From: Gemmatimonadales bacterium | Lineage (GTDB): Bacteria > Gemmatimonadota > Gemmatimonadetes > Gemmatimonadales > GWC2-71-9 | DNA: 64,000 bases | Assembly (NCBI GenBank): GCA_041615815.1 | Contig: JBFJCP010000001.1 | Span: forward strand, 64,001-128,000 | Direction: 5' to 3' | Shown: positions 13,253-55,676 of the stretch, piece after piece | How the letters are laid out: the number at the start of each line of letters is the position of its first letter | How positions within the stretch are numbered: position 1 is the stretch's first letter | Notes under the pieces: model-generated | Told to the model about the DNA's origin: nothing | The model's database searches: none | The model's input: the letters and a program-made list of their open reading frames with translations, nothing else | Translations under genes and position numbers: made by a program

Positions 13253-13258
13253 ACCACC

Positions 13259-27908: not shown

Positions 27909-27919
<11 letters not shown>

Positions 27920-30786: not shown

Positions 30787-30794
30787 CGATCTGC

Positions 30795-30823
30795 TTGTCA
30801 CCTCCAATCGCCATTACTAGGTT
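30795..30823 (+). promoter_or_regulatory. sigma70-type promoter for mutase small subunit (very short leader)
   Basis: TTGTCA-N17-TAGGTT ending 9 nt before ATG 30833. Confidence 0.55.
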
Positions 30824-30832
30824 GCGCGCACA

Positions 30833-31276
30833 ATGAGCGGCCAGGCAACTTCTCGGACGCCCTCGGACAGCCAGGCGCGACCCATTCGGATCTTGGTGGG
30901 AAAGCCTGGGCTCGACGGCCATGACCGTGGTGCGAAAGTCGTGGCGGCAGCCCTGCGGGATGCCGGCATGGAAGTCATCTACACTGGGCTTCACCAAACA
31001 CCGGAGATGATCGCGACGGCCGCGGTGCAGGAAGACGTGGACGTGGTGGGGTTGTCCATTCTCTCCGGTGCGCACATGACGCTCTTCCCACGAGTCCGGG
31101 CCCTGCTGGCCGACGCCGGACGCGACGACGTCCTGCTCATTGGCGGCGGGATCATCCCGCATGAGGATATCGAGCGGCTCGAGCGGGAAGGTGTGGCGAA
31201 ACTCTTCACGCCGGGGACGACCACCAGCGACATCATCGATTTCATTCACACGTGGGCGGCGAGTCGCGCCGAGTGA
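30833..31276 (+). CDS. Acyl-CoA mutase small, cobalamin-binding subunit
   Basis: [12 protein letters not shown] (DxHxxG), [15 protein letters not shown]. Confidence 0.94.
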
Positions 31277-37163: not shown

Positions 37164-37165
37164 GC

Positions 37166-37537
37166 ATGGGTCGGAAAGGCGCTAGGCGAGCGGCTCGGGG
37201 CACCCGGATGGTGCCACTCGTCACCTTGGCACACGCACGCAGCGGTGACAAGGGCAACACGGCCAATGTCGGCCTGATCGCGCTCCGCCCCGAATACTAT
37301 CCGCTCCTCGTGCGCGAAGTCACGGCAGCGCGCGTGGCCCGACATTTTCGCGGTGCCATCGACGGCCCGGTGGAGCGGTTTGAGCTTCCCAATTTGCGTG
37401 CGCTCAACTTTCTCCTCCACGGTGCGCTTGGCGGTGGCGGCACGCTCTCCCTCAAGACGGACGCTCAGGGAAAGGTGTTTTCGACCGCCCTCTTGCGCAT
37501 GGCCATCCCCGTCCCGCGAGATCTCGATGTCCGCTGA
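37166..37537 (+). CDS. AtuA C-terminal-like small protein
   Basis: AHARSGDKGNTANVG, VERFELP, ALGGGG, DAQGK. Confidence 0.85.
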   Translation: MGRKGARRAARGTRMVPLVTLAHARSGDKGNTANVGLIALRPEYYPLLVREVTAARVARHFRGAIDGPVERFELPNLRALNFLLHGALGGGGTLSLKTDAQGKVFSTALLRMAIPVPRDLDVR

Positions 37538-38288
37538 GCGTCTTCGACTCGAGCTCGCGGACGGCGTGTACACCATCACCTTGGATCGTCCGGAAAAACG
37601 TAACGCCGTGGATGCGTCCATGGTGGACGCGCTGTTGAATGCGCTGGACCGCGCGGACCTCGAGGCCGGCGTTCGCGTCGTTGCCGTTCGGGGAGCCGGC
37701 AAAGACTTCTGTGCCGGAGCGGATCTAGCGGAACTCCTCGCGTCCGTAGACCACGCACCGGAAGCCAACGCGCGCAGTGCCGCGCGCCTGGGCGAGGTAT
37801 TCGTCCGCATGCGCCGTTTGCCGAAGCCGGTTGTGGCCATCGTGCATGGACGAGCGCTTGCCGGAGGATGCGGGCTCGCCACCGCCTGTGATCTCGTGCT
37901 GGCACATGAAGCGGCCGTGTTTGGCTACCCAGAGGTGCGACGCGGCTTTGTCCCAGCCATGGTGATGGCCATGCTGCGCCGGGCCGTGGGGGAGCGGGTC
38001 GCGTTCGACCTGGTCGCGACGGGTCGCCTACTCTCCGCCGCCGAGGCACAGGCCGTGGGACTCATTGCCCGCGTGCTGCCAGCGAGCCAGTTCGATCCCG
38101 AGGTCCAAACGGTGCTACAGCAGCTGGCCGGGGCGAGCGCATCCGCGCTTTCGCTGATCAAGCGACAGCTCTATGAGCTCGAGGGCAAGAGCTTCGACGA
38201 AGCCATTGCGCTCGGGGCCGACGTCAACGCGCTCGCTCGGTCCACCCCGGACTTTCGAGCCGCGGTTGCACGTTTTCTCCAACGATGA
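37527..38288 (+). CDS. Enoyl-CoA hydratase/isomerase (methylglutaconyl-CoA hydratase-like)
   Basis: LDRPEKRNA, FCAGADL, ALAGGCGLATACD, GYPEVRRG. Confidence 0.9.
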   Translation: MSAERLRLELADGVYTITLDRPEKRNAVDASMVDALLNALDRADLEAGVRVVAVRGAGKDFCAGADLAELLASVDHAPEANARSAARLGEVFVRMRRLPKPVVAIVHGRALAGGCGLATACDLVLAHEAAVFGYPEVRRGFVPAMVMAMLRRAVGERVAFDLVATGRLLSAAEAQAVGLIARVLPASQFDPEVQTVLQQLAGASASALSLIKRQLYELEGKSFDEAIALGADVNALARSTPDFRAAVARFLQR

Positions 38289-40607: not shown

Positions 40608-41933
40608 ATGCTCGACCGCTTCTTCCAATTGCACGCGCATCAAACCACGGTTCGCCGCGAGATCGGCGCCGGGGCCACCACCTTCGTCACGATGTCGTAC
40701 ATCATTTTCGTGCAACCGGTGGTCCTGGGGGCCGCGGGCATGGATCCGGGCGCGGTGATGACGGCGACCTGTCTGTCCAGTGCTCTGGCCACGCTCCTGA
40801 TGGGGCTCCTCGCCAATTATCCCATTGCTCTAGCGCCAGGAATGGGGCACAACTTCTTCTTCACCTACACGGTCGTGATCCTGTTGGGATACACCTGGCA
40901 GCAAGCGCTCGGTGCCATCTTCGTTTCCGGGGTATTGTTCATCGTTCTGGCCTTCATCGGGTTTCGCGAGCGGTTATTGAATGCCGTCCCGGCGGCGTTG
41001 CGCAACGGCATTGCAGCAGGCATTGGCCTCTTGATTGCGCTGGTGGGACTCCAGTGGGGCGGTATCGTCGTCGATAGCCCCGGAACACTCGTGCAGCTGG
41101 GCTCCTTGGGGTCACTCCCGGTGTTGCTCACCGTGCTGGGACTCGCGGTTACGTCGATCCTGCTCGCCTGGCGGGTGCGGGCCGCTATTCTCCTCGGGAT
41201 CGTGACCACCCTGGTGGTCGGGCTGGCGCTGGGAGTGACGGAGTTTCACGGAGTCGTGGGACGTCCTCCAGCGCTGCGCGCCACATTCCTCCAGCTGGAC
41301 GTGCTTGGGGCGCTCCAGACCGGGATGCTCTCCGTCATCTTCGTGTTCTTCTTCCTCGATCTGTTCGACACGGTCGGGACCCTCATTGGCGTCACGCAGG
41401 AGGCGGGGTTGGTGCGGGAGGACGGCACGCTTCCTCGGGCCCGCGGCGCACTCTTGGCCGACGCCATCGGCACCGTGAGCGGAACGCTCCTGGGCACGTC
41501 GACGATCACGAGCTACGTGGAGAGTGCCGCCGGTGTGACCGCCGGAGGCCGTACCGGCCTAGCCAGCGTCGTTACGGCACTCCTCTTCGTGAGTGCGCTG
41601 TTTTGTGCACCGTTGGTGGCGATGATCGGTCGGGGCGTACCGATGGGCGAGGGGCGTGTGCTCTATCCGATGGTCGCACCGGCGTTGATCCTCGTGGGGA
41701 GCTACATGATGAAAAGCGTTGTGCGGATCGAGTGGTCGGATCCGAGCGAAGCGATCCCGGCATTCCTCACGATTCTCGTCATGCCCCTGACCTTCAGCAT
41801 TACCGAGGGCATCGCGTTCGGATTCATTGCCTATGTCGTGCTCAAAGGGGCACGTGGTCGGCTTCGTGAGGTACCCCTGCTCATACAAGTGTTCGCCGGG
41901 TTGTTCGTCCTCCGTTACCTGTTGCTCTCGTGA
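40608..41933 (+). CDS. NCS2/AzgA-family purine permease
   Basis: TTFVTMSYI, LAPGMG, FDTVGTL, YVESAAG, GGRTGL; multi-TM. Confidence 0.92.
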   Translation: MLDRFFQLHAHQTTVRREIGAGATTFVTMSYIIFVQPVVLGAAGMDPGAVMTATCLSSALATLLMGLLANYPIALAPGMGHNFFFTYTVVILLGYTWQQALGAIFVSGVLFIVLAFIGFRERLLNAVPAALRNGIAAGIGLLIALVGLQWGGIVVDSPGTLVQLGSLGSLPVLLTVLGLAVTSILLAWRVRAAILLGIVTTLVVGLALGVTEFHGVVGRPPALRATFLQLDVLGALQTGMLSVIFVFFFLDLFDTVGTLIGVTQEAGLVREDGTLPRARGALLADAIGTVSGTLLGTSTITSYVESAAGVTAGGRTGLASVVTALLFVSALFCAPLVAMIGRGVPMGEGRVLYPMVAPALILVGSYMMKSVVRIEWSDPSEAIPAFLTILVMPLTFSITEGIAFGFIAYVVLKGARGRLREVPLLIQVFAGLFVLRYLLLS

Positions 41934-41956
41934 AGGTGCAGGGGGTGTCGATCGGC

Positions 41957-41985
41957 TTGCCAGCTTACCGCATGCCAAGCATCAT
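41957..41985 (+). promoter_or_regulatory. sigma70-type leaderless promoter for acyltransferase
   Basis: TTGCCA-N17-CATCAT ending 6 nt before GTG 41992. Confidence 0.45.
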
Positions 41986-41991
41986 TGTGGC

Positions 41992-42783
41992 GTGAGTTCC
42001 CCCGCGAAACGCGAGGTCGCGACCTCGGCTCGAAGCAGACGGAGGGGCATTACCGAGCGGCTGAGGAGACACGCACCGCCGCGCCGTGGGCCTCTCTTCC
42101 GGCTTTTTTGGCCGATCACGGCCTATCTGCTCACCAACATCACGGTCACGTTCTTCTGGGTCGTATTCCGGGTGTTCAATCGGACCGTGGTCACGGGCTT
42201 GGAACACATCGACGACGAGCCCAACACGATGTTACTGTCGAATCATCAGTCCATGATCGACAGCTTCTTGGTGGGCCTCGTCGCCTATTTCCCACGGGCC
42301 ATGTGGAAACCGCATCTCTTGCCGTGGAATCCGGCCGCCGAAGAGAATTTTTACAGGACGCCCGTGTTACGATGGTTTGCAGACAACTGGAAGTGCATTC
42401 CCATCAAGGAGGGCCGGCGAGACCTGCACGCTCTCCACCGAATGCTGCAGGTATTGCCTGCGGGGGTCATGACCCTCTTCCCCGAGGGCACACGCACGCG
42501 AGATGGCTCGGTGGGCCGCGGCCGACCGGGGGCAGGGCTCGTGATCCTCGGAAGCCGCCCCAAAGTCATTCCCGTCGCCATTGACGGGATGCAGGACGTC
42601 TTACCGATTGGGGCGGTGCTGCCCCGGTTGTTCAAACGGATCTACGTGGCGTACGGCGAGCCGCTCGATTACGCCGACCTTCTCAACAAGCCCCGCTCAC
42701 GCGAAACTGCCCAGGAGGTCGTGGACCGCGCGATGGACGCGGTTCGCCGCAAGCTCGAGGAAATCAGGCGTGATCGGCGGTAG
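41992..42783 (+). CDS. Lysophospholipid acyltransferase (PlsC family)
   Basis: SNHQSMID (HxxxxD), FPEGTRT, VIPVAI. Confidence 0.9.
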   Translation: MSSPAKREVATSARSRRRGITERLRRHAPPRRGPLFRLFWPITAYLLTNITVTFFWVVFRVFNRTVVTGLEHIDDEPNTMLLSNHQSMIDSFLVGLVAYFPRAMWKPHLLPWNPAAEENFYRTPVLRWFADNWKCIPIKEGRRDLHALHRMLQVLPAGVMTLFPEGTRTRDGSVGRGRPGAGLVILGSRPKVIPVAIDGMQDVLPIGAVLPRLFKRIYVAYGEPLDYADLLNKPRSRETAQEVVDRAMDAVRRKLEEIRRDRR

Positions 42784-44356
42784 CTGCCGCCGCAACTTGC
42801 GTAGCCGGTTGCGGCTTGATGCCGTCTCCATTCACCTTCTTGAGATAGGCGGTCGGATCGTGCAGCAGCGATCCTTCGGGCAGGTACTCCCAGAGCGCTC
42901 CAAGGTCGCTCTTCATGCGCTCGATGTAGAATGACGGGATCTGCGTCGTCTCTCCTTCGAAAAAGCGGCGCGTCGGGCCGTCGGTTGCGAGGAGCTGTTT
43001 GATCTTCTTGTAGTACTTGATGCGTCCGAATCCCTCGGAAGACACTGCCCGAAGAAGGTTGATCCAGCGCGAAAATCCCCGCCTCGTCCCGCGCGCTCGC
43101 CGCACGATGTTCTTCCAGGAAAACGAGTATTGGGTCAGATCGATGACGTGATCGTAAAACTCCCCCCACTCGTAGTTCCTGGGCTCGACATTCATCGCCT
43201 GATTGTTGTTCAAGAAGTGGAACGGGAACGGGCGGACTCGCCCGGCGCGTTGAAACTCGAGGTTGAGGGGTGCGGCCTCTCCAAACGCGGACAAGAGTGA
43301 ATAGCCCGGGAATGCGCCGGGTGTCTTGTCGATGAATTGCTTGGTGAGCTCGAACGGCTCCGGTCCCTCATCCACGTCGAGACCCAGGACGAAATTGGTT
43401 TGGACGTAAGGGATGTATTCCAATATCATGTTTACGTGGTCGGAGACCTGTTGCACCTTCTCGAGACCACGCTTCTTTCCCGTCTTGGACTTGCCACCCA
43501 AATCGTACCATGACTCGATCCCCGGGAGCATCACCTTGAAGCCCGCGGCGCTCAGGCGCTGCAAGTTCGCTTCCTTGAGGAGGGAGAGACTGCTCTCCGC
43601 GGCGAACGTCAGCGTCCCGGGACGGATGGCATCTTCGATCGCGCTCATGTAGTCGTCGAAGCGAACGCCGAAGTTCGGATCGTGCCAGCCGATCCAGGCG
43701 TTCGGCATACGGTCGACGAGGAAACGCAGGTCCTCACGAATCTGGTCGTAGTCCAACGGCTGATAATCGACCACCGAATCGATGCAGAAGCTGCACGTGT
43801 AGGGACACCCGAGACTGCCGATCATCGGGATGCCTTTGATCGGTGTCGGTGATTTGGCGATGGTGTGTTCGATGAAGCGCCAACGCTCTCGCACACCTGG
43901 CAATGTCTGGGGTTGCCGCGGCGCACTGAGGTGCAGCCCCATGGGGCGATGGGGTGCGCAATCGCGCAAGATCTCGTCGATGATCGCCTTATCGGTGAAC
44001 CCGACGACGTAATCGAAGTACTTCCGGGCATCCTCGGGGTAGCACCGCGCGTGCGGCCCGCCGAGAACCGTGACCGCCCCCCGCTGCCGAAACAGATTGC
44101 TCAGGGCATACGACAGCTGAGCCGCCTGGCTGAAGGCGCCGATGAAGAGCAGATCCATGTCCGCGGGAAACGCTTCGAGGAGATCCTCCGACCCGGTGAA
44201 GCACTCGAAAGTGACGTGATGGCCCGCCTCCTCGCACCAGACGCCCACGGCTTGTGGCATGATGCTGGCCAAATTCGGGTGCATCAGGCGGCCGTACAGC
44301 GCTTTGGTGGGTCCCTTCGTGACGAGGTCGAGGATACCGATCCGTAGTCGTCGCAC
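42764..44356 (-). CDS. Cobalamin-binding radical SAM protein
   Basis: N-terminal B12-binding Rossmann domain (TVLGGPHA), GCPYTCSFC, GIES, NFVLGLD. Confidence 0.88.
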   Translation of the reverse strand: MRRLRIGILDLVTKGPTKALYGRLMHPNLASIMPQAVGVWCEEAGHHVTFECFTGSEDLLEAFPADMDLLFIGAFSQAAQLSYALSNLFRQRGAVTVLGGPHARCYPEDARKYFDYVVGFTDKAIIDEILRDCAPHRPMGLHLSAPRQPQTLPGVRERWRFIEHTIAKSPTPIKGIPMIGSLGCPYTCSFCIDSVVDYQPLDYDQIREDLRFLVDRMPNAWIGWHDPNFGVRFDDYMSAIEDAIRPGTLTFAAESSLSLLKEANLQRLSAAGFKVMLPGIESWYDLGGKSKTGKKRGLEKVQQVSDHVNMILEYIPYVQTNFVLGLDVDEGPEPFELTKQFIDKTPGAFPGYSLLSAFGEAAPLNLEFQRAGRVRPFPFHFLNNNQAMNVEPRNYEWGEFYDHVIDLTQYSFSWKNIVRRARGTRRGFSRWINLLRAVSSEGFGRIKYYKKIKQLLATDGPTRRFFEGETTQIPSFYIERMKSDLGALWEYLPEGSLLHDPTAYLKKVNGDGIKPQPATQVAAAATADHA

Positions 44357-44457
44357 TGAAACCCCTATGAGGTCAAAGGATGGGCGAAAGGTTCACCACC
44401 GCAGCGGCGAAAGCAACCCCGGCTTGACGATGCTCCCACGGGACCGCACGATCACGC

Positions 44458-45162
44458 ATGGCCGAGCGGCTCGTACGCTACCGATGGAACGTCGCCGTGG
44501 TCGAGGTGGCGGCACCCGGAGCACCGTTCCGTGCCCTGGAACGTATCATCCGCCAAGGCATCGGCCCGGCCACGAGCGATCCGGTCTTTCAGGAGCATGC
44601 GGTGGCTTTCGCCGTCTCGAAGACCGCCGAGCCAACGGCCGAAGACCGGGTCCGGGGCTGGGTTGATCTGACCGCTGTCGCGCCGTCCGACTCGCCGATC
44701 CGCGGGGCGGTGCAGCGCCATCTGGGCGATCTCGGCGCCATCGAGGAGCCGCCATCGGATGCTGACCCGCTCCTGCTGCCCCAGGCCGCGGAGTATCGCC
44801 GCGGCCTCACTGACATGGTGGCCATCGCCTTGGACCTGCATGGCGCGGATCCGACCACGCTGCGGGCGCATCAAGGTGAGCTGCTCCAAGTGGCGTGCAG
44901 CGCTACCGATCCCCGGTTCCAGCTCCACCCGTATCTCTCGGAGCACAGCAAGGTCTACCGTGCCCGCACTGGCGTGCCGCCGGACGGGAGTAGCTGGTCC
45001 TGGGAGCACGAGGAGTGTTGGGCCCGATTCTACACTCCCGGACCGATGGCGACGCTCGCGGCCCCCATCTACGCCCTGCTGAACGTGGTGCTCGGCATCG
45101 TCCCGCGGCGCTGGGACCGCCCGGACGCGCTGGCGGCACGCATCGATATCCCCCTGCCGTGA
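44458..45162 (+). CDS. Hypothetical protein
   Basis: 234-aa ORF fills the gap between the two rSAM genes; TTGACG(44424)-N17-CACGAT promoter-like element ends 5 nt before the ATG. Confidence 0.6.
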   Translation: MAERLVRYRWNVAVVEVAAPGAPFRALERIIRQGIGPATSDPVFQEHAVAFAVSKTAEPTAEDRVRGWVDLTAVAPSDSPIRGAVQRHLGDLGAIEEPPSDADPLLLPQAAEYRRGLTDMVAIALDLHGADPTTLRAHQGELLQVACSATDPRFQLHPYLSEHSKVYRARTGVPPDGSSWSWEHEECWARFYTPGPMATLAAPIYALLNVVLGIVPRRWDRPDALAARIDIPLP

Positions 45163-45226
45163 GGCCCGAGCGCCGACCGGACGGGCCGTGGACCCCGAAG
45201 GTCAGAGGCTCAAAGGGCGAGCGCGC

Positions 45227-46702
45227 TCAGGCCACCTTGGATACGAGGCGACGTTGGTCGGACCGCCCGTTCCCACCCTCCCGCCGGGGCGCTCGCACGC
45301 GGACCGGTGGCTTGAGGTACGCCTTCGGCTGCCGCATTTCAGAGACGGCGCTGTACACCCGTCGCATACACCAGAGCTTGCCACCCACCGCCATGCGCGC
45401 GGCCTTGAAGAGCATGGGGACCGTCAGCCGCGTCGTCTTGACCGTGAGATCGTACAGCTGCGCCAAGCGCTCGTAGAACTGCTCGAGCGGCAGCCGCGTT
45501 GGCAGGACGGCATGAATCACGTCGTAGTACCCATAGTCATGCGTCGTGAGCTCGTGCTGCCGCTCCTTGTAGAGCTCGGTTCCCGGGAGCGGGGTGAGAA
45601 CGGTAAACGCGGGATTGGGCAGCTCGTAGCGTCGGATGTATTCCTCGAGCCGATCGAACCCCTGCTCGTCCCAATCCGGATCTGTGATAAACGAGGTCAG
45701 GGGCGTGATCCCAGCGTCCTTGAGGATCTGGATCGCTTCGACATTGGCGTCCGCACCACCCTTGGTCCGTTTCCGCACGGACTTGAGGCCATCGTCGTCG
45801 ATTTTCTCGACGCCGAGAAAGACCGTATGGAGCCCCGCTCGCTTCCAGAGAGGGAACAGATCACGATACTTGATGACCAGGTCGCAGCGAGTCTCACACG
45901 TGTATTTCTTCTCCATCCCCGACGCGATGATGCGCTCGGCCATCTCTTTGTAGGACTCGTAGTGCAGGAATGCGATGTCGTCGGTGAAGAACACCTCGTA
46001 TTCGTCGATGGCTTCGAGCTCGGCCACGATCGCTTCCGGTGAACGGCGGCGCGCGCGACGCTGGTAAAAGACCCAGACGCTGCAGAAGTTGCAGTCGAAC
46101 GGGCACCCCCGGGACGTTTCGACGCTGGCCGACGGTGAGGCCTGACCGTGATGGTACCACTTGCGATATTGCGCGGTCAGGGACCGATCGGGAGCGGGGA
46201 CGGTGTCGAACCCCTGCAGGGCGCTCTGATGCCGAAAGCCGTCCTCGCGGTTCTTCCAGGTCATGACACCGGGCACCGCGTCGATGGGGGTCCGATGCCG
46301 CATGGCTTCGATCAGATCGGCGGCAGGACGCTCGCCCTCCCCAATCACTACGCCATCCACGGGGGAGTTCGGGTGAAAGAAGTCGCTTGGCACCAGGGAG
46401 GCGTGGTGCCCGCCAACGATGATGGGAAGGTCGGGCCGGCGTTCCTTGACAAAATGCGCGACCTCGAGACTCGGGTAGACGTCGGTGGTGAACGAGCAGC
46501 TTATGCCCACGACGTCGGGCGGATCGTCGAGGGTGGAATCGAGATTTTCCCAAGTGTCGATACGGAGATCGATCAGTTCAGCCTCGACTCCCCGTTGCCG
46601 AACGGCCGCCCCCACACATTCCAAGCCAAGTGGCTCCACGCGGAGTATGCGGGTGAGTCCGAAGCGTGTTCCCTGGGGCGGCTGGACGAGAAGCATTTTC
46701 AT
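45227..46702 (-). CDS. Cobalamin-binding radical SAM protein (HpnR-like lipid methylase family)
   Basis: EPLGLE, VGGHHAS, GEGE, SRGCPFDCNFC, FLGVE, DPDWD, TPLPGT, HAVLPTRLPL; GGAG before ATG 46702. Confidence 0.88.
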   Translation of the reverse strand: MKMLLVQPPQGTRFGLTRILRVEPLGLECVGAAVRQRGVEAELIDLRIDTWENLDSTLDDPPDVVGISCSFTTDVYPSLEVAHFVKERRPDLPIIVGGHHASLVPSDFFHPNSPVDGVVIGEGERPAADLIEAMRHRTPIDAVPGVMTWKNREDGFRHQSALQGFDTVPAPDRSLTAQYRKWYHHGQASPSASVETSRGCPFDCNFCSVWVFYQRRARRRSPEAIVAELEAIDEYEVFFTDDIAFLHYESYKEMAERIIASGMEKKYTCETRCDLVIKYRDLFPLWKRAGLHTVFLGVEKIDDDGLKSVRKRTKGGADANVEAIQILKDAGITPLTSFITDPDWDEQGFDRLEEYIRRYELPNPAFTVLTPLPGTELYKERQHELTTHDYGYYDVIHAVLPTRLPLEQFYERLAQLYDLTVKTTRLTVPMLFKAARMAVGGKLWCMRRVYSAVSEMRQPKAYLKPPVRVRAPRREGGNGRSDQRRLVSKVA

Positions 46703-46932
46703 GGCGGGGCACTCCAGGGCAAAGAGTGTCACAGGCCGGGTGCCGGCGATGGGTCCAAAGGGGTGATGACACCATCGCCAGTCGCTCAGGCGCTGCGTCA
46801 ATGACAGAGGCCGGTCGGACGTGAGAATGTCACGCACCGACCGGCCCGGTCTCTAGGTTACGTTCTCACCGATCGAGAGAACGTAGGACTATTGCTCCAC
46901 TTCCCGAGTTCGGCGGACGGCGGCGTGCCAGC

Positions 46933-48792
46933 TCAATGACATCCACACGCGCCGTCGCCGTTGCCGGCCCCAACGCCGGCAGCCACGACTGGAAGCGACC
47001 GGCTCGTCTTGCCGGGAAGGTCCATGGGGCGGTTCCCCGCGTAGATCTTGTGTCGGCTGCGGGTCTTGAACCAGTCCTTCGTAGTGGCCACCATGTGCAT
47101 GTTCTCCACCACCTGGCGCCAGCCCACGCCAGTGTTGTAGGCGCAGAAGGAGATCTCACCCTCCTGGGTGGCGTAGGGGATCACACACATCTCGGTGCGG
47201 CGAAAATCGTACGTCCACAGATCCTGGAACCACATGCCGCCGATCCACATGAGCTTCCACTCGGGTGGCGGCGGCTTCTTCCCACCGGTAAAGGCGCCAC
47301 CCATCTTGCGATTGAAGAGTCTCGCGAACTCTTTGAGGTCGAATCCTGGAGGTGCCTTGGACTGATCGAAGTTCCGTAGTACCGCCATGCCCACCTGCGC
47401 AACCGTGAGCTTCTTGCCCCGCGCCGTATCGCAGATGACCGACACATCCTTCATGAACTGCCAGACGTTGAAGAACTGCGTGAGGGGGGCCCACTCCTTG
47501 GTCCGCTCGTTCACGGTGAGCAACACCGAAGAACCGCAGTTGGGGTGACACGAGCAATTGAGACCCCCGAAGTCGACGTCCGAGCCCCGGATGTGGTCCG
47601 CCAGTGCCGTGAAGGCACCCATGGCCCCGAGCGGATACCAGTCGCGGTACGGATCGATCTTCCCGTCGTAGTAACGGTGCAGCTCGTGCGCCAGATGCGA
47701 AATGGTGTAGCGCTGCGCGTGACGGTCTTCGTCGCTGATATCCTCGTCGCGGCCCGTGAACGACACGGGCTGGAAGGACACGCCACCCATCTTGTCCGAG
47801 TTCTCGATGACGAAATCGAGAATCGGTCCCACCTGGGTGTCGTTGATCGTATTGACGACGGTGGTGACCGGCGTGATATCGATGCCAGCGGCGGCCATGT
47901 GCTCGACGGCCATCCGCTTGGCATCGAACAGGTTCGTGATTTGCCGGTGTTGGTTGGACTCGTTGGTGACGCCATCGAACTGGAAGTACGCCATATCGAG
48001 GCCGGCTTCCTTGGCCTGGAAAGCGTATTCCGGCTCCAGCGCGAATCGCAGCCCGTTAGTGGCCGCCTGGACGGTGTAGTAACCCACTTTTTTTGCGTAG
48101 GCACAGGCTTCCAGGAAGTGCGGTGACATGGTGGGTTCGCCGCCGGAAAACTGCACGGACATCTGTCGGCGCGGCTTGAACGAAATAGACGTATCCAGGA
48201 TTTCCTTGATGTCCTCCATCGAGAGCTCGTGGACGTAGCCCACCTGATTGGCGTCCATGAAGCACGGGTTGCACATCATGTTGCATCGGTTGGTGAGGTC
48301 GATCGTGAGCACGGCACCCCGACCGTACCGAATCGATGATGTCCCGTGTCGGTGGATCAGCGCATCCTCCGCGGTCCGAAAGTCGCGGCCGGGATAGCGC
48401 TCCTCGATGAGCTCGCTGAACTTGGCGTCGATGCTGAGTACGTCGACAAACTCCCCGTGCACGGGGCAGGTCTTCCGCATCAGAATCTGACCGTCTTCCT
48501 CGACGATGGTCGCCCGGATCTCGCCCGGGTGCCCATGGACCAACTCGGCGAGATCCCGATCGCCCCTGATAATGGCTTCTCGCGTCTCCTTGACGCATCG
48601 GGGGCAGAGCGAATCGGTCTCCCGCGGCCATCCGAGCGGCGGACGGCTGCGCTCGTAACTCTTGAGCAACGGCCCGGGAGCCCACTGTGGATGGATCGAC
48701 TCGTTCTCGGGAACTCGGGTGTTGACGGACTGGAACGCCCGCCACCCGAGATCGGCTGCGTGGCGGATCGCGGCCGCCAGTACTTCGCTCAT
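46933..48792 (-). CDS. tes: Tetraether lipid synthase (Tes/GDGT-MAS)-like radical SAM protein
   Basis: TDSLCPRC...KTCPVHGEF, DLTNRCNMMCNPCF, VQFSGGEPT, ATNG, YFQFDG, FQPVSFTGR, SCHPNCG, MWFQD, CVIPYAT...SFCAYN; GGAGG before ATG 48792. Confidence 0.82.
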   Translation of the reverse strand: MSEVLAAAIRHAADLGWRAFQSVNTRVPENESIHPQWAPGPLLKSYERSRPPLGWPRETDSLCPRCVKETREAIIRGDRDLAELVHGHPGEIRATIVEEDGQILMRKTCPVHGEFVDVLSIDAKFSELIEERYPGRDFRTAEDALIHRHGTSSIRYGRGAVLTIDLTNRCNMMCNPCFMDANQVGYVHELSMEDIKEILDTSISFKPRRQMSVQFSGGEPTMSPHFLEACAYAKKVGYYTVQAATNGLRFALEPEYAFQAKEAGLDMAYFQFDGVTNESNQHRQITNLFDAKRMAVEHMAAAGIDITPVTTVVNTINDTQVGPILDFVIENSDKMGGVSFQPVSFTGRDEDISDEDRHAQRYTISHLAHELHRYYDGKIDPYRDWYPLGAMGAFTALADHIRGSDVDFGGLNCSCHPNCGSSVLLTVNERTKEWAPLTQFFNVWQFMKDVSVICDTARGKKLTVAQVGMAVLRNFDQSKAPPGFDLKEFARLFNRKMGGAFTGGKKPPPPEWKLMWIGGMWFQDLWTYDFRRTEMCVIPYATQEGEISFCAYNTGVGWRQVVENMHMVATTKDWFKTRSRHKIYAGNRPMDLPGKTSRSLPVVAAGVGAGNGDGACGCH

Positions 48793-48925
48793 GGCACCTC
48801 CAGATGGGAGCAAAGTGTCTTACGACGCCTGACCCCACCCCTCCGGCGCTTGCTGCGGCTGTACCAGGGCGCCGACCGGAGAAAATCGGCACGCAGGGCG
48901 GGTGGTTTTCATAAGGGGCGCACGG

Positions 48926-48955
48926 TGAGAATGGTTCCCACGGTACGCCCTGCAA
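48926..48955 (-). promoter_or_regulatory. Candidate tes promoter overlapped by a Fur-like 7-1-7 palindrome
   Basis: TTGCAG-N16-CATTCT on minus strand; TGAGAAT-G-GTTCCCA at 48926-48940. Confidence 0.35.
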
Positions 48956-48989
48956 ACTTGCCCGAGTATGACGCTTAGCACCCCTCGCG

Positions 48990-50060
48990 TCAAGGCCCGG
49001 GTTGGCTCTGCGGAACGGCCGCGGGAAGGGGTATTCCCGCCTCGAAAAGACGCCGTTCGACCTCGGGCGCTAACCGCGCGCTCGGCTCGACCCACCGTAG
49101 CCCTTCGCCGAGCAGCGCACGCATCCGTTGCTGTGTTGTGCGGCCCGTTACGTCGTCGAATTTCGACGCGAGCCCTTGGAGCCATGGCGCCGACGCCACG
49201 AGCTTCGTGGCGCCCACTTCCGATGGTTGGGTGTGCGGCCGGCCCGAGGGGAGCGTGAGCACGCTTTGGCCGTCGCCGACATAGGTATACCAGGCCATCC
49301 GCACCGTGGGTGTCACACCCACCGCTTCGAACAACACGACGTCCTCCGCCTGCGGAGCACACTGCAACACCCGGTCTCGAACGAAATCGATTGCGTCGCC
49401 ATGGCTGAATTCCACGCGGTCCAACGTCCCGTCCGCACGAGCGGCGTAATGGATCCCTGCCACGTCGTCGGGCTCGGCCTTCCGGGCCTCACCGCGCCAA
49501 TTCTGCGCCCGCTCCGGGGTATCGAGGACCTGCGATCGATCCCACAGAAACCCGTGGCCCACGATACCGTTGGTTCCCTCGTCGCTTCGGTCGGGTAGGA
49601 TGATGGTGTCCGGAATGCCCGCCGCCTGCCGAAGGGCGAGTAGTCGCGTCGCACTGACCGCATCGGTGGCCACGGCAACCCGGGCACCGCTGTCGCGCAC
49701 GGCCTCGCCCAACTGGTCGTCGGAGAGATCGTGCGACAGCCCCACCGGAACGCCCCGGAGTCCCTGTACGGCAAAATCGACGTAGAGCCACATCGGCCGT
49801 AACGGTCCGAATACAGCCACGCGGTCCTCCGCACCGACCTGGAGATTCCCACTGAGAAAGAGGGCAACCCGAATCACCTGGCGATCGAATCGCCAATCGG
49901 GATCGCTGACCCATTGCTCGTCCGCCCAATGCCGAACGACGGCGGGACGTGCGTGCTCGCGCATGGCGAGATAGAACAGGGCATTGACCGTTTCCGGAAT
50001 GGTGTGGAGCGGTCGAACCTCACGGTCCCGCGCCTCACCGGTCGTGATATACAGCAGCAT
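48990..50060 (-). CDS. Degenerate, truncated long-chain acyl-CoA synthetase-like (AMP-binding N-domain) protein
   Basis: EDRVAVFG...WLYVDFAVQ...VPVGL...DSGARV and PDDVAGIHY follow the FadD pattern; P-loop not conserved; ends before the GYG motif. Confidence 0.7.
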   Translation of the reverse strand: MLLYITTGEARDREVRPLHTIPETVNALFYLAMREHARPAVVRHWADEQWVSDPDWRFDRQVIRVALFLSGNLQVGAEDRVAVFGPLRPMWLYVDFAVQGLRGVPVGLSHDLSDDQLGEAVRDSGARVAVATDAVSATRLLALRQAAGIPDTIILPDRSDEGTNGIVGHGFLWDRSQVLDTPERAQNWRGEARKAEPDDVAGIHYAARADGTLDRVEFSHGDAIDFVRDRVLQCAPQAEDVVLFEAVGVTPTVRMAWYTYVGDGQSVLTLPSGRPHTQPSEVGATKLVASAPWLQGLASKFDDVTGRTTQQRMRALLGEGLRWVEPSARLAPEVERRLFEAGIPLPAAVPQSQPGP

Positions 50061-50066
50061 CTGGAC

Positions 50067-50597
50067 TCAACCTCTCGGAATGGAATGCGGCTTCAAGGCC
50101 TGCCACAATGATTCGATCGTCGGATCTGTGATCTGCCACCGCTCCATGGCATGAATGAGCGTCCGAACATACTCGACGCCGGTCCCCACGGTGCCGTGGG
50201 CCGCGCGGAAGGCGTCCCCCAGGGCGCCGTTCTCGACACTCCAGGGCGGAGCCGCCTGGACCGCTGGCTTCGTGACCCAGACGAGCGCCGTGGCACGAGT
50301 TCCGTCACGCAGGTCGATCCGCACCTTCTTACGCGCAAACTCTGCCTGACCTTCCCGTCGCTCGATCTTGCGCACCACGTCTTTCTCATCGCTCTTCGGG
50401 ATCTCGAACGCGACGCCCTCACACTCTCCTCCGCTCGATAACCCCAGAATGGGCGAGGGGTGGGTCGGGGTTCCCCACCGTTTCGTGGACGAGTGGTTGA
50501 ACGACCGGTGATAGCCGGTGAGGCGGGCTGGTGTCCCTCGGTAGAACCTCATGGCGTTGTCGCCCATGAGACTGCCGTAAGCGAAGATCCACGTCAC
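50067..50597 (-). CDS. ChaC-family gamma-glutamylcyclotransferase
   Basis: WIFAYGSLM, GYHRSF, RWGTP...LGL, CEGVAF, RRE, GTGVEYV. Confidence 0.88.
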   Translation of the reverse strand: MTWIFAYGSLMGDNAMRFYRGTPARLTGYHRSFNHSSTKRWGTPTHPSPILGLSSGGECEGVAFEIPKSDEKDVVRKIERREGQAEFARKKVRIDLRDGTRATALVWVTKPAVQAAPPWSVENGALGDAFRAAHGTVGTGVEYVRTLIHAMERWQITDPTIESLWQALKPHSIPRG

Positions 50598-50741
50598 GCC
50601 CAAATCCTTCCCGCTCCAGACAGTTGCGAAGCTCGAAACCCGTTGGGGTGCTTGCGGATTGCGTCGAGCGGCTTAGTCTACTACCCGAAGGCCGATTTTC
50701 AAGGGTCCCCTGCGCCTGCACTTACCCACACCACGCAGACC

Positions 50742-51038
50742 ATGATGCATCGTGCCAATGTCCTGGACGTCGTCCGAGCCGTGACGCAGGTGGCGACCAA
50801 CCACCCTCAGGTGTCGGTGTGGTGGTATGTGCCGCGGCTCCTGGACAACCCCAACATCGAGCTCCTGGTGAAGGTTGAGGATGAGCACCCCACCGACCTC
50901 GATGCGATCGCGCGCGAGGTCGACGCCTTGCTCGATGGCGCCAACGTCACCGTGAAGCGTCATGCGGACGGGGACGGGGAACGCCGGCTGTTCCGCGTGC
51001 TCAGTCACAACCAAGCCGCCGTCGACAGCGCCTCCTAG
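50742..51038 (+). CDS. Small hypothetical protein
   Basis: 98-aa ORF with GC-rich third positions; faint minimal-nucleotidyltransferase-like pattern. Confidence 0.6.
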   Translation: MMHRANVLDVVRAVTQVATNHPQVSVWWYVPRLLDNPNIELLVKVEDEHPTDLDAIAREVDALLDGANVTVKRHADGDGERRLFRVLSHNQAAVDSAS

Positions 51039-51096
51039 CCGCTCCTCTCTCGAGACCGACCCAGCCACCGCCGGCTGCGAGACCGCCCGCGGGTCA

Positions 51097-51241
51097 TGTC
51101 CTCTTTTGAGCACAAGATTTCCGGCAGAATGCGACCTGGCGTAGACAACCTCGGGCCTGGCGTGCAACGACGTAATTCCTTGATAGATATGAAATTAGGC
51201 CGGAGCGCCTCGCGGGCGGAACTTCTGGCACAGAATTTCCA
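51097..51241 (+). promoter_or_regulatory. Candidate sigma54 promoter with IHF site and upstream activator sequence
   Basis: TGT-N12-ACA (51097-51114); IHF consensus TATCAA-GGAA-TTA on minus strand (51173-51185); TGGCAC-N5-TTCCA (51226-51241), one mismatch at -12. Confidence 0.5.
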
Positions 51242-51251
51242 TTTAGGGGAT

Positions 51252-51367
51252 GCAAAGAAAAACTGCGGCGTGCTGAACGTCTTGTCGCCAGGCAAGAAAT
51301 CTCGTCGGGAGGGGACGAGCGGGACCACACCAAAGCCCGGTTCAGCACGCCGCAGCGCTTTTTGTTT
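51252..51367 (+). ncRNA. Candidate novel structured small RNA (four-way junction)
   Basis: Perfect 16-bp inverted repeat 51263-51278/51340-51355 enclosing three hairpins, followed by a T-tract; begins where a sigma54 start site is expected. Confidence 0.5.
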
Positions 51368-51523
51368 CGCTACGGTCTTCACAATATGTCACATGGCGCG
51401 GGGAACCGCAATCACGCCCGTACCGTCCGCAGACCCCGTATCACTCGTTGCTTCCCAGCACATAGCCTGCCCTCTAACTTTCACAAGACACCGCACGAAG
51501 CACGCTTTCTAGGAGGGGACGTA

Positions 51524-52858
51524 GTGAGTCACTCCAGGCTCGTTTTGCTCGCTTCTTTACTGGTCGCCGCCACCGGGACGCTTCCAGCACAGGACGCACC
51601 AGTGCGTCGAATCCCGGTTACGGGCACCATCGAATTGGGGATCGCGCCGTTCGTTGCCCGCGGGCTGTCGGAAGCACAGAAAGAGGGTGCCCGCGCCGTG
51701 GTGCTCGAGATCGAGACCCCGGGCGGTCGTGTGGATGCGGCACAGCACATCGTCAAAGCGATCATCCAGACCGAGATTCCGGTCTATGCCTTCGTGAACG
51801 CCCACGCCTGGAGTGCTGGGGCACTCATCGCGCTCGCCGCGGACTCCATCTACATGGGTCCCGGGTCATCTATCGGGGCGGCAACACCCGTGGGGGGAAC
51901 CGGAGAGAAGCTCTCCGAGAAGATCGTCAGCGCCATGCGCGGGGAGTTCCGCTCGCTCGCCGAGCGTCGGGGGCTGGACCCGCGGATCGCCGAGGCCATG
52001 GTCGATGAGGAGATTGCCGTCGAGGGCGTGGTGGAGGCGGGGAAACTGCTCACGCTCACTGCGGCGGAAGCAGTGGAAACCGGAGTGGCCGCAGCCGAAG
52101 TGGAGAATCTGGACGATCTGCTCCGGCAGGTGGGGCTGGGCGAGGTCGGCGTGGCCACGGTGAGCATCAACTGGGCGGAACAGCTCGTCCGGTTCCTGTC
52201 ACACCCGCTGGTGGCGCCCCTGCTCCTGTCCATTGGCACGCTGGGGCTCATCATCGAGATCAAGACGCCTTCCTTTGGGCTGGCGGGGCTCACCGGCATC
52301 GTGGCCTTGGGTGCCTTTTTCGGAAGCCATTTGATCGTCGGGCTTGCCGGCTGGGAAGAGGTCATATTGCTGGTCGCCGGCTTGATCGCCCTGGCGATCG
52401 AAGTGTTCGTGGTGCCGGGCTTCGGGATCGCGGGGATGATTGCCATCCTCTGCATCGGGTCGGCTACGTTCTTGGCGTTGATCGGCGCACTGCCTACCTG
52501 GGGCGATATCGCGAGAGCGAGTGGCATTCTCGTGACGTCGTTCATGATCGTGGCGGCCGCGGTGTATGCCATCGTGCGCCATTTGCCGACGAGCGAGCGG
52601 TGGAGGGGTATCTTCTTGCGGGCGGCGACCACGAAAGAAACCGGGTACCTCTCCGCGCCGGCTCGTGCCGAGTTGGTGGGCCTGGAGGGATTGGCGGTCA
52701 CGGACCTCCGCCCGTCCGGCACCATGCGGATTGGCAACGAGCGGCACGACGTCGTCTCCGATACGGGGTTCATCCCCAAAGGCGCGCGGGTACGGATCAT
52801 CCGCTCGGAAACCTACCGGCTGGTCGTCGAGGAAGTGGCCGACACCGCCAGCGTTTAA
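51524..52858 (+). CDS. nfeD: NfeD-family membrane protein (ClpP-like domain, TM region, OB fold)
   Basis: IETPGG, AWSAGALIALA, IGAATP, TDLRPSG; AGGAGG Shine-Dalgarno. Confidence 0.9.
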   Translation: MSHSRLVLLASLLVAATGTLPAQDAPVRRIPVTGTIELGIAPFVARGLSEAQKEGARAVVLEIETPGGRVDAAQHIVKAIIQTEIPVYAFVNAHAWSAGALIALAADSIYMGPGSSIGAATPVGGTGEKLSEKIVSAMRGEFRSLAERRGLDPRIAEAMVDEEIAVEGVVEAGKLLTLTAAEAVETGVAAAEVENLDDLLRQVGLGEVGVATVSINWAEQLVRFLSHPLVAPLLLSIGTLGLIIEIKTPSFGLAGLTGIVALGAFFGSHLIVGLAGWEEVILLVAGLIALAIEVFVVPGFGIAGMIAILCIGSATFLALIGALPTWGDIARASGILVTSFMIVAAAVYAIVRHLPTSERWRGIFLRAATTKETGYLSAPARAELVGLEGLAVTDLRPSGTMRIGNERHDVVSDTGFIPKGARVRIIRSETYRLVVEEVADTASV

Positions 52859-52873
52859 TGGACGAGGACGACT

Positions 52874-53866
52874 ATGAGTGAACTGTTTGCGATAGCACCG
52901 TGGCTGCTACCGGTGGCGCTGGTGGTCATCGTGCTGTTCTTGGGGTGGTTCATCAGCTTCATCCCGATCCGGTTGTGGATCGAGGCACTGGCCGCCGGCG
53001 TCCGCGTCACCTTCCGAACGTTGGTCGGCATGCGGCTGAGAAAGGTCAATCCGGCCGCCGTCGTGCGCCCCATGATCAACGCGACCAAAGCAGGGCTCTC
53101 TCTCGGCATCGACATGCTGGAAGCGCACTACTTGGCTGGGGGAAACGTGGATCGCGTCGTGAAAGCGCTGATCTCTGCGGATAAAGCGGGGATCGATCTC
53201 CCCTTCAAGCAGGCGACGGCCATTGACCTGGCGGGACGGGACGTCCTCGAGGCCGTACAGGTCTCGGTCAATCCGAAGGTGATCCAAACGCCCAAAGTGG
53301 CCGCGATGGCGAAGGACGGCATCCAGCTCATCGCGCTGGCCCGCGTCACCGTCCGGGCGAACATCAACCGCCTGGTCGGTGGGGCGGGGGAAGAGACCAT
53401 TCTCGCGCGGGTCGGCGAAGGCATCGTGTCGACGATTGGATCGTCGGCCTCGCACAAAGCGGTGCTCGAAAACCCGGACAACATCTCCAAAACCGTCCTC
53501 GCCAAGGGACTCGACAGCGGGACGGCCTTCGAGATCCTCTCTATCGATATCGCCGATGTCGACGTGGGCAAGAACATTGGGGCCGAGCTGCAGACCGACC
53601 AGGCCGAAGCCGACAAGCGGATCGCGCAGGCGAAGGCGGAGGAACGGCGGGCTATGGCCGTGGCGTCAGAGCAGGAGATGAAGGCCAAGACCCAGGAGAT
53701 GCGGGCCAAGTTGGTGGAGTCCGAAGCCCAGGTCCCGCTGGCGATCGCTGACGCGTTCAAGGGCGGCCAGCTCGGCATCATGGATTACGCACGGTGGCGG
53801 AACATCGAGGGAGATACGGCCATGCGGCGCAGCATCGCCGGTGAGAAGGGCGAGGAAAACAGCTAA
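52874..53866 (+). CDS. floA: Flotillin-like protein FloA (YqfA)
   Basis: [68 protein letters not shown]. Confidence 0.93.
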
Positions 53867-54410: not shown

Positions 54411-55676
54411 ATGAAGGACTTCCCCTATTTGACCGACGAGCACCATCAGGTGCGCGACATCGTGCGAGACTTCGCCGAGCGGGAGATTCGCCCCGTAGCT
54501 AGGGAGTACGACACCCAGAATCGGTTCCCTTGGGACAACGTGAAAAAGATGGGGGAGCTGGGCTTCTTGGGCGCCCCGTGGCCTCCGGAGCTCGGCGGCG
54601 CCGGAATGGACTATCTGTCCTACATCATTTTGGTGGAGGAACTCGCCCGGGTGGACGCGAGCCACGCCATCACGGTTTCGGCGCACACGACGCTCGGGAC
54701 GTCGCCGATCATGAGCTTCGGCTCCGACGAGCAGAAGCAGCAGTTCGTGCCACTCCTGGCGTCGGGGCAGGTGCTAGGCGGCTTCGGCCTGACGGAACCG
54801 GGCGCGGGGTCGGACGCGGGCGGAACCCAGACGACCGCTGTCGACAAGGGCGACCATTTCGTCATCAACGGATCGAAGATTTTCATTACGAACGCCGGCG
54901 TCGGGGAGATCTTCGTGATCACGGCACGGACGGATGCCGACGCGGACAACCGCAGTGGTGGCATCACATCCTTCATCGTGACCAAGGACACCGTCGACCT
55001 CGAGGTGACGACCGCGCTGGGTGTGGGGCACGCGGCCGGCCTCCCCAAGACGACTGGAGTCCGCGCGGCGAAAAAAGAGGACAAGCTGGGGTGGCGCGCG
55101 TCTGACACGCGCGAGTTAGTGTTGGAAGACGCGGTGGTGCCGAAAGCACAGGTTCTGGGCGATCGAGGCCGCGGCTACGCCAACTTCCTCAAGACACTCG
55201 ACTCCGGCCGCATTGGTCTCGCGGCGTTGTCACTGGGATTGGCACAGGGCGCCCTGGATGAATGTCTGGCCTACACGGCGGAGCGGCGCCAGTTTGGCCG
55301 CGCGATCGCTTCGTTCCAGGGGGTGCACTTTGCACTGGCGGACATGGCGACGGAGATCGAGGCTGCGCGCCACCTCATCTATCACGCCGCCTGGCTCAAC
55401 CAGCACGCGCGACCCCACAAGCGCGAAGCAGCCATGGCCAAGCTCTTTGCTTCCGAGCTGGCCATGCGCGCCACCACCAAAGCCGTGCAACTGCATGGCG
55501 GATACGGGTACACCACCGAGTACCCGGTCGAGCGGATGATGCGTGATGCGAAAGTCTGCGAGATCGGCGAGGGCACGAGCGAGATTCAACGAATCGTGAT
55601 TGCGCGGGAACTCCTGGGTGATCTGATCACGGTCACGGGTGGTGGAGGGATCGGAGCGGCGACCGAGGTTGGGTAG
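54411..55676 (+). CDS. Acyl-CoA dehydrogenase
   Basis: [52 protein letters not shown]. Confidence 0.94.

Follow-up and report, generated by a model that had tools for sequence, protein, structure and literature searches.

An HpnR-like, predicted B12-binding radical SAM protein encoded beside a Tes homologue in a Gemmatimonadales bacterium

Temperature and pH proxies in wide use rest on how many extra methyl groups brGDGTs carry, and at which positions. The brGDGT pathway scheme given in PMC10087280 leaves the C5/C6 methylations without an assigned enzyme, and no named brGDGT alkyl-chain methylase was found in the literature that we searched. Bacterial Tes homologues have been put forward as enzymes of brGDGT synthesis (PMC8941075; Solibacter usitatus studies), their activity being described as unconfirmed. 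The described methylases of comparable lipids are archaeal. Gmm, Cgm and Pgm are B12 radical SAM methylases of GMGT/GDGT tails, encoded beside tetraether-lipid genes and proposed to methylate the hydrocarbon core (PMC11214058; 10.1101/2025.10.20.683597). Function varies within such families: the relatives of the GDGT methylases include the desaturase Ted, and ring synthases belong to the same enzyme class as the archaeal GDGT methylases (10.1101/2025.10.20.683597). The accessible text of the bacterial-Tes literature yielded no mention of brGDGTs or Tes homologues in Gemmatimonadota, and the five supplementary files of PMC11214058 and three of the four of PMC8941075 contain neither "Gemmatimonad" nor "HpnR".

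We analysed a 64-kb stretch of DNA from a soil-type Gemmatimonadales bacterium, called the window below, in which an HpnR-like gene stands next to a Tes homologue:

45227..46702, minus strand (longer ORF to GTG at 46837): HpnR-like, predicted cobalamin-dependent radical SAM protein, 491 aa (Pfam, TIGR04367, CX3CX2C motif, AF2 fold)
46703..46932, minus strand: spacer of 230 nt from the Tes homologue to the HpnR-like gene (sequence; no known RNA element)
46933..48813, minus strand: bacterial Tes (GDGT/MAS) homologue, 626 aa as longest ORF (NF045702, Zn_ribbon_HMPTM and Radical_SAM, 7TOL)

The ORF 45227..46837 (-) holds 536 open codons and starts at GTG, and an inner ATG at 46702 gives the 491-aa form. 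The alignments of 20/20 relatives begin at the start of this form, which is identical, letter for letter, to database record P0004, so that the shorter form, 45227..46702, is the likely gene. We observed a B12-binding domain (PF02310, 70.5 bits, cutoff 32.1; residues 67-175 of the long ORF) and a Radical_SAM domain (PF04055, 67.8 bits, cutoff 29.5). The CX3CX2C cluster motif reads CPFDCNFC, and its cysteines C200, C204 and C207 are invariant in all 20 aligned sequences. The motif blocks quoted for this gene in the preliminary description were all found in the translation (LRVEPLGLE, ETSRGCPFDCNFCSVWVFY, ETRCD, FLGVE, DPDWD and TTHDY...HAVLPTRLPLEQFY). The best PDB fold matches to the AF2 model (pLDDT 80.4) were AprD4, TsrM, CysS, TokK, OxsB and MgmA (E 2e-17 to 3e-14). 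Since the top match, AprD4, is a dehydratase and no methylase, the fold alone is no proof of methyl transfer. A search of PDB sequences gave weak matches only (TokK, E 9e-12) and no substrate hint. Judged from its sequence, the protein has the anatomy of a class B (cobalamin-dependent) radical SAM enzyme, with cobalamin binding and methyl transfer predicted.

We compared the protein with curated families. The best NCBIfam match was HpnR (TIGR04367, 355.1 bits, E 5e-106, curated cutoff 650) and the runner-up was BchE with 158 bits. The similarity to HpnR is therefore far beyond chance yet below the curated equivalog level, and the earlier designation "HpnR-like" holds with this restriction. The non-methylases BchE, HpnJ and AprD4, B12-domain radical SAM proteins of the same fold class, scored far under the HpnR match and all below their own cutoffs. 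Twenty NCBIfam families were listed for the protein, and by description none is a GDGT/GMGT methylase. On TIGR04367 the database relatives scored 320-358 bits (17/17), and the cutoff was reached by none of 81 locus proteins (best 369 bits), whereas true HpnRs span 789-899 bits (controls: true HpnR, 899.2; P0264, 788.7). As reference for HpnR, the hopanoid C-3 methylase of Methylococcus capsulatus type, we took a Kozakia baliensis plasmid gene named hpnR by NCBI. HpnR was the sole characterised enzyme that we identified among the relatives of the protein.

The two proteins have in common the order of domains, B12-binding followed by radical SAM, and the blocks GCPxDCxFCS, ETRxD, FxGxE, DPxWD and TTxDY...HAVLPTxLPL, and in both the target would be an sp3 carbon of a membrane lipid, as predicted for the HpnR-like protein. 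In contrast, the HpnR-like protein lacks the 60-70 residues that are conserved at the C-terminus of HpnR. The TIGR04367 match covers model positions 1-421 of 490 (true HpnR, 1-489), the hhalign alignment of the family with the true HpnR profile (probability 100, 35% identity, ~435 columns) ends at column 443 of 515, and the invariant tail residues of HpnR (Y466...R508) are without partner. Identity to true HpnRs is 31-34% for all family rows, non-family clusters alike, compared with at least 55% within true HpnR. With ~33% identity, and with 20 representative clusters scoring closer than true HpnR in a search with the family profile, the analogy to HpnR is distant.

The preliminary description had named a phylogeny with HpnR as a check. 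We built a tree of 86 rows (IQ-TREE, LG+G4, quick search). In the best tree the true HpnR rows formed one clade (SH-aLRT 100, stem 0.96) and the HpnR-like family, consisting of Gemmatimonadota and Acidobacteriota proteins, formed another (support 100). The separation stands in this tree, but an HpnR clade that takes in the window protein could not be excluded by the AU test, as constraining the protein with nine true-HpnR rows lowered lnL by 19.1 (p-AU 0.331) and the constrained tree was not rejected. From the sequence comparisons we conclude that the protein is not a true HpnR and represents an uncharacterised subfamily of class B radical SAM enzymes.

A divergent methylase of hopanoids or of another cyclic triterpenoid, acting on ring A as HpnR does and with shc elsewhere in the genome, would agree with the AU result and with HpnR as the best-scoring curated family, and our search of this genome for shc covered the 64-kb window. 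Such an enzyme is nevertheless highly improbable in view of the score of 355 bits, the identity no higher than that of non-family clusters, the unmatched C-terminal tail and the separate clades of the best tree. Further, the neighbour of the gene is a Tes homologue, in contrast to hopanoid genes. We scanned 55 non-overlapping ORFs tiling the window (17 + 38) with Pfam and found no match to squalene-hopene cyclase or an hpn family, and a cyclase gene (~1.9 kb) would not fit into the gaps left by the tiling, which bears out the earlier statement that the window holds no such gene. There was likewise no cyclase or hpn Pfam match among 54 neighbouring ORFs scanned in seven related loci. In its available sections, a survey places HpnR domains in Pseudomonadota, Desulfobacterota and Actinomycetota, with Gemmatimonadota unmentioned (PMC12324291). 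Public records already give relatives of the protein the name "hopanoid C-3 methylase HpnR"; this speaks for a hopanoid substrate at face value, but by the sequence criteria above the name is an over-annotation, and it could mislead surveys of 3-methylhopanoid sources.

The gene directly upstream of the HpnR-like gene, on the same strand, had been called tes. Its product matched NF045702 with 311.3 bits (model positions 2-483 of 486; curated cutoff 450) and the solved GDGT/MAS structure 7TOL with E 5e-64 (residues 99-581). Because homology to 7TOL is clear and the score lies below the cutoff, we classify it by sequence as a Tes homologue and not as the curated equivalog, and the reported adjacency is confirmed in these terms. 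The zinc ribbon and radical SAM core of Tes/GDGT-MAS are present (Pfam Zn_ribbon_HMPTM and Radical_SAM), and the protein shares 56% identity with the Tes homologue encoded at L056, a locus of Acidobacteriota. The alignments of relatives begin at residues 5-12, and translation probably starts a few codons inside the longest ORF. On annotated plasmids, we found Tes homologues in only three haloarchaeal records (25-27% identity) and no cultured example of the cluster.

Since a gap of 230 nt separates the two genes, their co-transcription is putative. An Rfam scan of 41000..52000 by E-value gave two weak, chance-level matches, none of them in the spacer, and no cobalamin riboswitch; such a riboswitch or another known RNA in the spacer was rejected on this basis. 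A promoter/terminator scan gave four promoter-like sites compared with 1.8 expected. Within the spacer it gave one weak promoter-like match on the opposite strand (46801..46828, +) and none usable on the strand of the HpnR-like gene.

We fetched six loci of the family clade, including L004, L005, L007, L011 and L010 (7.6 kb). A Tes homologue lies at most 2 kb from the HpnR-like gene in four of them (L004, L005, L007 and L011), the other two being short contigs. L006 has no Tes homologue in its 5.4 kb, and L010 keeps the divergent ChaC|HpnR-like arrangement of L011 up to the contig end. The HpnR-like proteins of these loci are 56-84% identical to the window protein, and in the Tes-linked loci their genes occur in three arrangements with the Tes homologue (co-directional, convergent and divergent). 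The linkage is conserved in Gemmatimonadota through these rearrangements, which extends the adjacency noted earlier beyond the window and strengthens the idea of a lipid-tail substrate.

Tes homologues also lie 1-8 kb from the genes of a second, separate HpnR-like clade (L052, L056, L059; support 100), found in Tes lipid clusters of Acidobacteriota and NC10 that hold an LpxL-type acyltransferase, a GT2, an MMPL transporter, a LolA-like protein and an AMP-binding enzyme. Among the best 120 matches to the L056 protein, five carry an organism name, all Vicinamibacterales/Vicinamibacteraceae MAGs, and there is no isolate; neither is there a cultured organism among the named relatives of the HpnR-like family.

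An unrelated substrate (another lipid, a cofactor or a secondary metabolite), the Tes homologue being a neighbour without shared function, would fit the very large HpnR-like radiation (5126 representatives at E <= 1e-30) with its diverse contexts, the spacer of 230 nt before the gene, and the sister clade L008/L009, where neither of two loci has a Tes homologue within 10 kb. Apart from the AMP-binding-like gene, the Tes homologue and the HpnR-like gene, which form a trio, the surrounding genes also differ from one relative to the next. We regard this explanation as unlikely, as the linkage outlasts three gene orders in four of six loci whose proteins have diverged to 56-84% identity, and as the second clade is linked to Tes homologues independently.

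Other HpnR-like relatives adjoin acyl-chain genes. One (P0278) is a FabD/NMO fusion, and another lies in a Clostridium plasmid cluster with FabD, an adenylating enzyme, a thioesterase and a carrier protein. Among the longer relatives we found fusions to FabD/NMO, to an aminotransferase and to a SnoaL-like domain, and none to Tes.

The genes around the pair are the following:

48990..50060, minus strand: short AMP-binding-like protein, 356 aa (PF00501, 58 bits, profile positions 27-270 of 384)
50067..50603, minus strand: ChaC-like protein of gamma-glutamylcyclotransferase fold (PF04752, 77.9 bits)
44458..45162, plus strand: conserved hypothetical protein, 234 aa (no Pfam/NCBIfam match)
42764..44356, minus strand: second, divergent radical SAM protein of B12-binding type, 530 aa, CPYTCSFC motif (Pfam)
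41827..42783, plus strand: PlsC-type acyltransferase, start uncertain (PF01553, 62.4 bits)

The ChaC-like gene is the first of the same-strand run, and L004, L010 and L011 hold homologues in syntenic position. The match of the AMP-binding-like protein to the adenylation domain is confined to the N-terminal part, and its homologue adjoins the Tes homologue in L004, L005, L007 and L011. The conserved hypothetical gene stands between the two B12 radical SAM genes, a position at which L004 holds a homologue with 45% identity. The PlsC-type ORF overlaps the preceding permease gene, holds the HX4D motif NHQSMID and is matched in L004 by a homologue of 73% identity. The Pfam scan of the tiling ORFs of the 64-kb window brought up no ether-lipid gene.

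The second radical SAM protein scored 33.9 bits on Radical_SAM and 20.3 bits on B12-binding (below cutoff), and matched no NCBIfam family at its cutoff. Among the related loci it is kept only in L004 (85%), and an Atlas search returned for it nothing but unnamed clusters of B12 radical SAM proteins, which occur most often in Gemmatimonadota, Rhodothermota and Myxococcota. We rejected an identification as Gms, which by its description is of SPASM/Twitch type and not of B12 type.

The HpnR-like enzyme might work in the same pathway by other chemistry, forming cyclopentane rings as GrsA/B do or removing hydrogens as Ted does on the lipid of the Tes homologue. The linkage is silent on the kind of reaction. 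GrsA/B belong to the B12-binding radical SAM enzymes (PMC11214058; PMC13459092), and Ted, a relative of the GDGT methylases, is likewise of B12 radical SAM type (10.1101/2025.10.20.683597). The top fold match is the dehydratase AprD4. We find this explanation doubtful, given that HpnR, the one characterised enzyme that we identified among the relatives, is a methylase and that the ring or desaturase enzyme might just as well be the protein at 42764..44356.

Our preferred reading, held tentatively as a real possibility short of probable, is that the HpnR-like protein works as a cobalamin-dependent C-methylase and modifies the alkyl chains of the lipid that the Tes homologue makes. In its favour are the class B radical SAM anatomy, HpnR, itself a lipid C-methylase, as the best curated family, the Tes linkage in four of six loci, the second Tes-linked clade and the acyl-chain contexts of other relatives. 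There is also a precedent in Gmm, whose gene, of B12 radical SAM type, was discovered next to tetraether genes (PMC11214058). Against it stand the distance from HpnR, the varying function within B12 radical SAM families, the sister clade and L006 with no Tes homologue nearby, the spacer of 230 nt and the negative scan of the window for ether-lipid genes. Clustering with tetraether-type genes, as for Gmm, Cgm and Pgm, is present at the HpnR-like gene in the window and, within 2 kb, in four of the six family loci. Moreover, cgm/pgm neighbourhoods often hold AMP-binding enzymes (25% co-occurrence; 10.1101/2025.10.20.683597), and an AMP-binding-like gene flanks the Tes homologue of the window. In contrast, Gmm, Cgm and Pgm are archaeal, act on isoprenoid tails and are described as similar to the methylase MoeK5 (PMC11214058).

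According to this methylase reading, the Tes homologue would join the ends of two lipid tails in the host to give a membrane-spanning lipid of iso-diabolic-acid or brGDGT type. The HpnR-like enzyme would then methylate this presumed substrate at unactivated sp3 carbons of the alkyl chain, the putative methylated positions. The chemistry may follow that proposed for HpnR and Gmm: SAM would methylate cob(I)alamin, and a second SAM would be cleaved at the [4Fe-4S] cluster to a 5'-deoxyadenosyl radical. This radical would abstract a hydrogen from the chain, and the substrate radical would take the methyl group from methylcobalamin.

In summary, with a candidate gene that conserved synteny links to a Tes homologue, the question of the chain methylase can be tested by co-expression, and the HpnR-like gene may serve as a marker for surveying metagenomes for producers. 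It is a speculative and rather improbable further step that the HpnR-like family would be the missing alkyl-chain methylase of bacterial membrane-spanning lipids, setting the degree of methylation read by the brGDGT palaeothermometer. In that case uncultured Gemmatimonadota would be unrecognised producers of extra-methylated brGDGT-type lipids, and a parallel methylase would be represented by the second HpnR-like clade linked to Tes, for which the nearest relatives in the database come from Vicinamibacterales MAGs; the two clades might differ in position, C5 versus C6.

The target gene, encoding an HpnR-like B12-binding radical SAM protein, lies in a 64-kb window of approximately 65% G+C. Its open frame (45227..46837, minus strand) has 536 codons; translation from the ATG at 46702 yields a protein of 491 aa (database record P0004) whose start is shared exactly by 20 of 20 aligned relatives. 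The sequence blocks quoted for it in the preliminary description were all present in the translation. By Pfam the protein has a B12-binding domain at its N terminus (70.5 bits) together with a radical SAM core (67.8 bits), and the cluster motif CPFDCNFC was invariant across the family alignment. The closest PDB folds to the AlphaFold model made from this alignment (pLDDT 80.4, pTM 0.85) were AprD4, TsrM, CysS, TokK, OxsB and MgmA, each with B12-domain radical SAM architecture. The surrounding features were as follows.

42764..44356, minus strand: divergent B12-type radical SAM protein (530 aa), two genes downstream of the target
Downstream of the target: PlsC-type acyltransferase
Downstream of the target, opposite strand: conserved hypothetical protein
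Upstream of the target, same strand: 230-nt spacer between the target and the Tes homologue
46933..48813, minus strand, upstream of the spacer: Tes homologue, with radical SAM and HMPTM-type zinc ribbon domains (Pfam)
Upstream of the Tes homologue, same strand as the target: short AMP-binding-like protein
Upstream of the Tes homologue, same strand as the target: ChaC-like protein

Tetraether lipid synthase (Tes, GDGT/MAS) was the top-scoring family for 46933..48813 (311 bits vs a cutoff of 450), and residues 99-581 aligned to the solved GDGT/MAS enzyme 7TOL (E 5e-64). The spacer gave no Rfam match. The 42764..44356 protein was more divergent than the target as a B12-type radical SAM protein, and no curated family fitted it. 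Among the fetched loci it was conserved in L004 only, and its Atlas neighbours were commonest in Gemmatimonadota, Rhodothermota and Myxococcota. Squalene-hopene cyclase or hpn families were matched in Pfam by 0 of 55 window-tiling ORFs. The observation of an HpnR-like gene beside tes, with no hopanoid genes in the window, was confirmed in all its parts.

Other genes of the window were also recorded. A membrane-microdomain pair also kept in L004, an NfeD-type membrane protease and after it flotillin-like FloA, lies just past the lipid genes (51362..53866, plus strand). A run of acyl-CoA metabolism genes (27909..38288 and 54411..55676) encodes methylmalonyl-CoA mutase, its B12-binding subunit, carboxyltransferase, AtuA, enoyl-CoA hydratase and acyl-CoA dehydrogenase; the two mutase subunits are separated by a baeRF-family protein, and the run also includes an S8 peptidase. 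A further radical SAM protein (394 aa, 14908..16092, minus strand) had a generic Pfam domain only.

We compared the target with HpnR, the hopanoid C-3 methylase. The curated model (TIGR04367) gave the target 355 bits, under its cutoff of 650, with only model positions 1-421 of 490 covered, while the Kozakia baliensis plasmid gene named hpnR by NCBI, located by tblastn, reached 899 bits over positions 1-489. All 17 database relatives of the target scored 320-358 bits, and of the 81 proteins taken from the fetched loci none reached the cutoff. Searched with a profile, 1.84 billion representatives yielded 5126 matches at E <= 1e-30; the family collapsed into P0123 (839 bits), below which came P0244 (614 bits), P0245 (559 bits) and a continuum of scores. 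Among the 92 of 150 listed representatives scanned with the HpnR model (short and very long ones left out), the single true HpnR was P0264 (789 bits, rank 22). The family profile matched that of ten true HpnRs with probability 100 and 35% identity, in an alignment that stopped short of the conserved HpnR tail. In the tree alignment each family row was 31-34% identical to true HpnRs, the same as non-family clusters, whereas true HpnRs shared at least 55% identity among themselves. Family members including P0010, P0017, P0020 and P0021 are publicly named 'hopanoid C-3 methylase HpnR'. Such members score about half the curated cutoff, and these names are likely over-annotation.

A maximum-likelihood tree (86 rows, LG+G4, quick search, rooted on 5 BchE-like rows) placed the family in a 16-row clade (SH-aLRT 100) made up of rows from Gemmatimonadota, two rows labelled Acidobacteriota and several database proteins without a name, with L008/L009/P0244 as sister (100). 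True HpnR rows formed their own clade (100, stem 0.96), and both clades fell within a 49-row polytomy. Holding the window protein with 9 true-HpnR rows was not rejected by the AU test (lnL lower by 19.1, p-AU 0.331), which runs against a clean separation of family and HpnR. The long HpnR stem could be attached at many positions at little cost, so their relation is not fixed by the tree alone. By the tests run here, taken together, the target would not be an HpnR. That it is instead a divergent triterpenoid methylase, compatible with the AU outcome and set against the low model scores and the lack of hopanoid genes in the window, appears very improbable.

The genome scan gave 80 loci; six belong to the family clade, at 53-84% identity. 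Four of these six (L004, L005, L007, L011) have, within 2 kb, a Tes homologue that shares 71-93% identity with the one in the window, each time alongside an AMP-binding-like gene.

L004 and L005: Tes homologue and target relative co-directional, as in the window
L007 (Gemmatimonadales, 11728-13522): Tes homologue convergent with the target relative, its match split in two over different frames, suggesting a frameshift or an assembly error
L011: Tes homologue divergent, behind ChaC-like and AMP-binding-like genes
L010 (7.6 kb contig): ChaC and target relative arranged as in L011, then the contig end
L006 (5.4 kb contig): DUF1501 gene upstream of the target relative, no Tes within the contig

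Tes was absent within 10 kb in the sister-clade loci L008 and L009; near the L008 relative lie genes for a ceramidase-like membrane protein, an SDR and an enzyme of the acyl-CoA-synthetase type. A separate HpnR-like clade, from NC10 (L052:10001-20764) and Acidobacteriota (L056:478-14302; L059:1793-11437), had Tes homologues 1-8 kb away, in clusters with an LpxL-type acyltransferase, GT2, an MMPL transporter, a LolA-like protein, an AMP-binding enzyme and further B12 radical SAM genes. Among the best 120 database hits of the L056 protein, the 5 organism-named ones were all Vicinamibacterales or Vicinamibacteraceae MAGs. Across three phyla, these linkages tie two HpnR-like branches to lipid clusters that contain Tes. 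Action of the target on an unrelated substrate, which the sister loci would favour and the Tes linkage of family members speaks against, is considered unlikely. HpnR-like enzymes were seen with acyl-chain genes as well: P0278 is fused to a FabD/NMO module, and on a Clostridium plasmid (L003:3078-9890) the gene lies beside FabD, an adenylating enzyme, a thioesterase and a carrier protein.

Synthesis of brGDGT-type lipids by bacterial Tes homologues is proposed, not shown, in PMC8941075 and PMC11868695. Solibacter usitatus, which carries Tes homologues, makes brGDGTs methylated at C5 to a degree that follows temperature (10.1101/2022.04.07.487437; PMC10087280), and the pathway scheme of PMC10087280 omits C5/C6 methylations. 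Koribacter versatilis reportedly makes C6-methyl iso-diabolic-acid tetraesters (PMC13274423, introduction), and it has a true hpnR that shares approximately 60% identity with the Methylococcus gene (PMC5462960). We found no named brGDGT chain methylase in the literature searched, whose coverage excluded most subscription journals. Gmm is a B12 radical SAM gene found beside gms (PMC11214058); GDGTs are methylated by Cgm and Pgm and desaturated by the related enzyme Ted (10.1101/2025.10.20.683597). The target may modify alkyl chains of the lipid formed by its Tes neighbour, and by analogy with HpnR and Gmm, C-methylation would tentatively be its likeliest reaction. Ring formation on the same substrate, or desaturation as by Ted, has a rather low probability.

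In summary, the earlier proposal of a tail methylase for brGDGT-type lipids survived these tests, still as a reading drawn from genomes. B12 radical SAM modifiers of lipid tails are already known, and the target would be a variant of them, of clear interest for lipid biomarker research.
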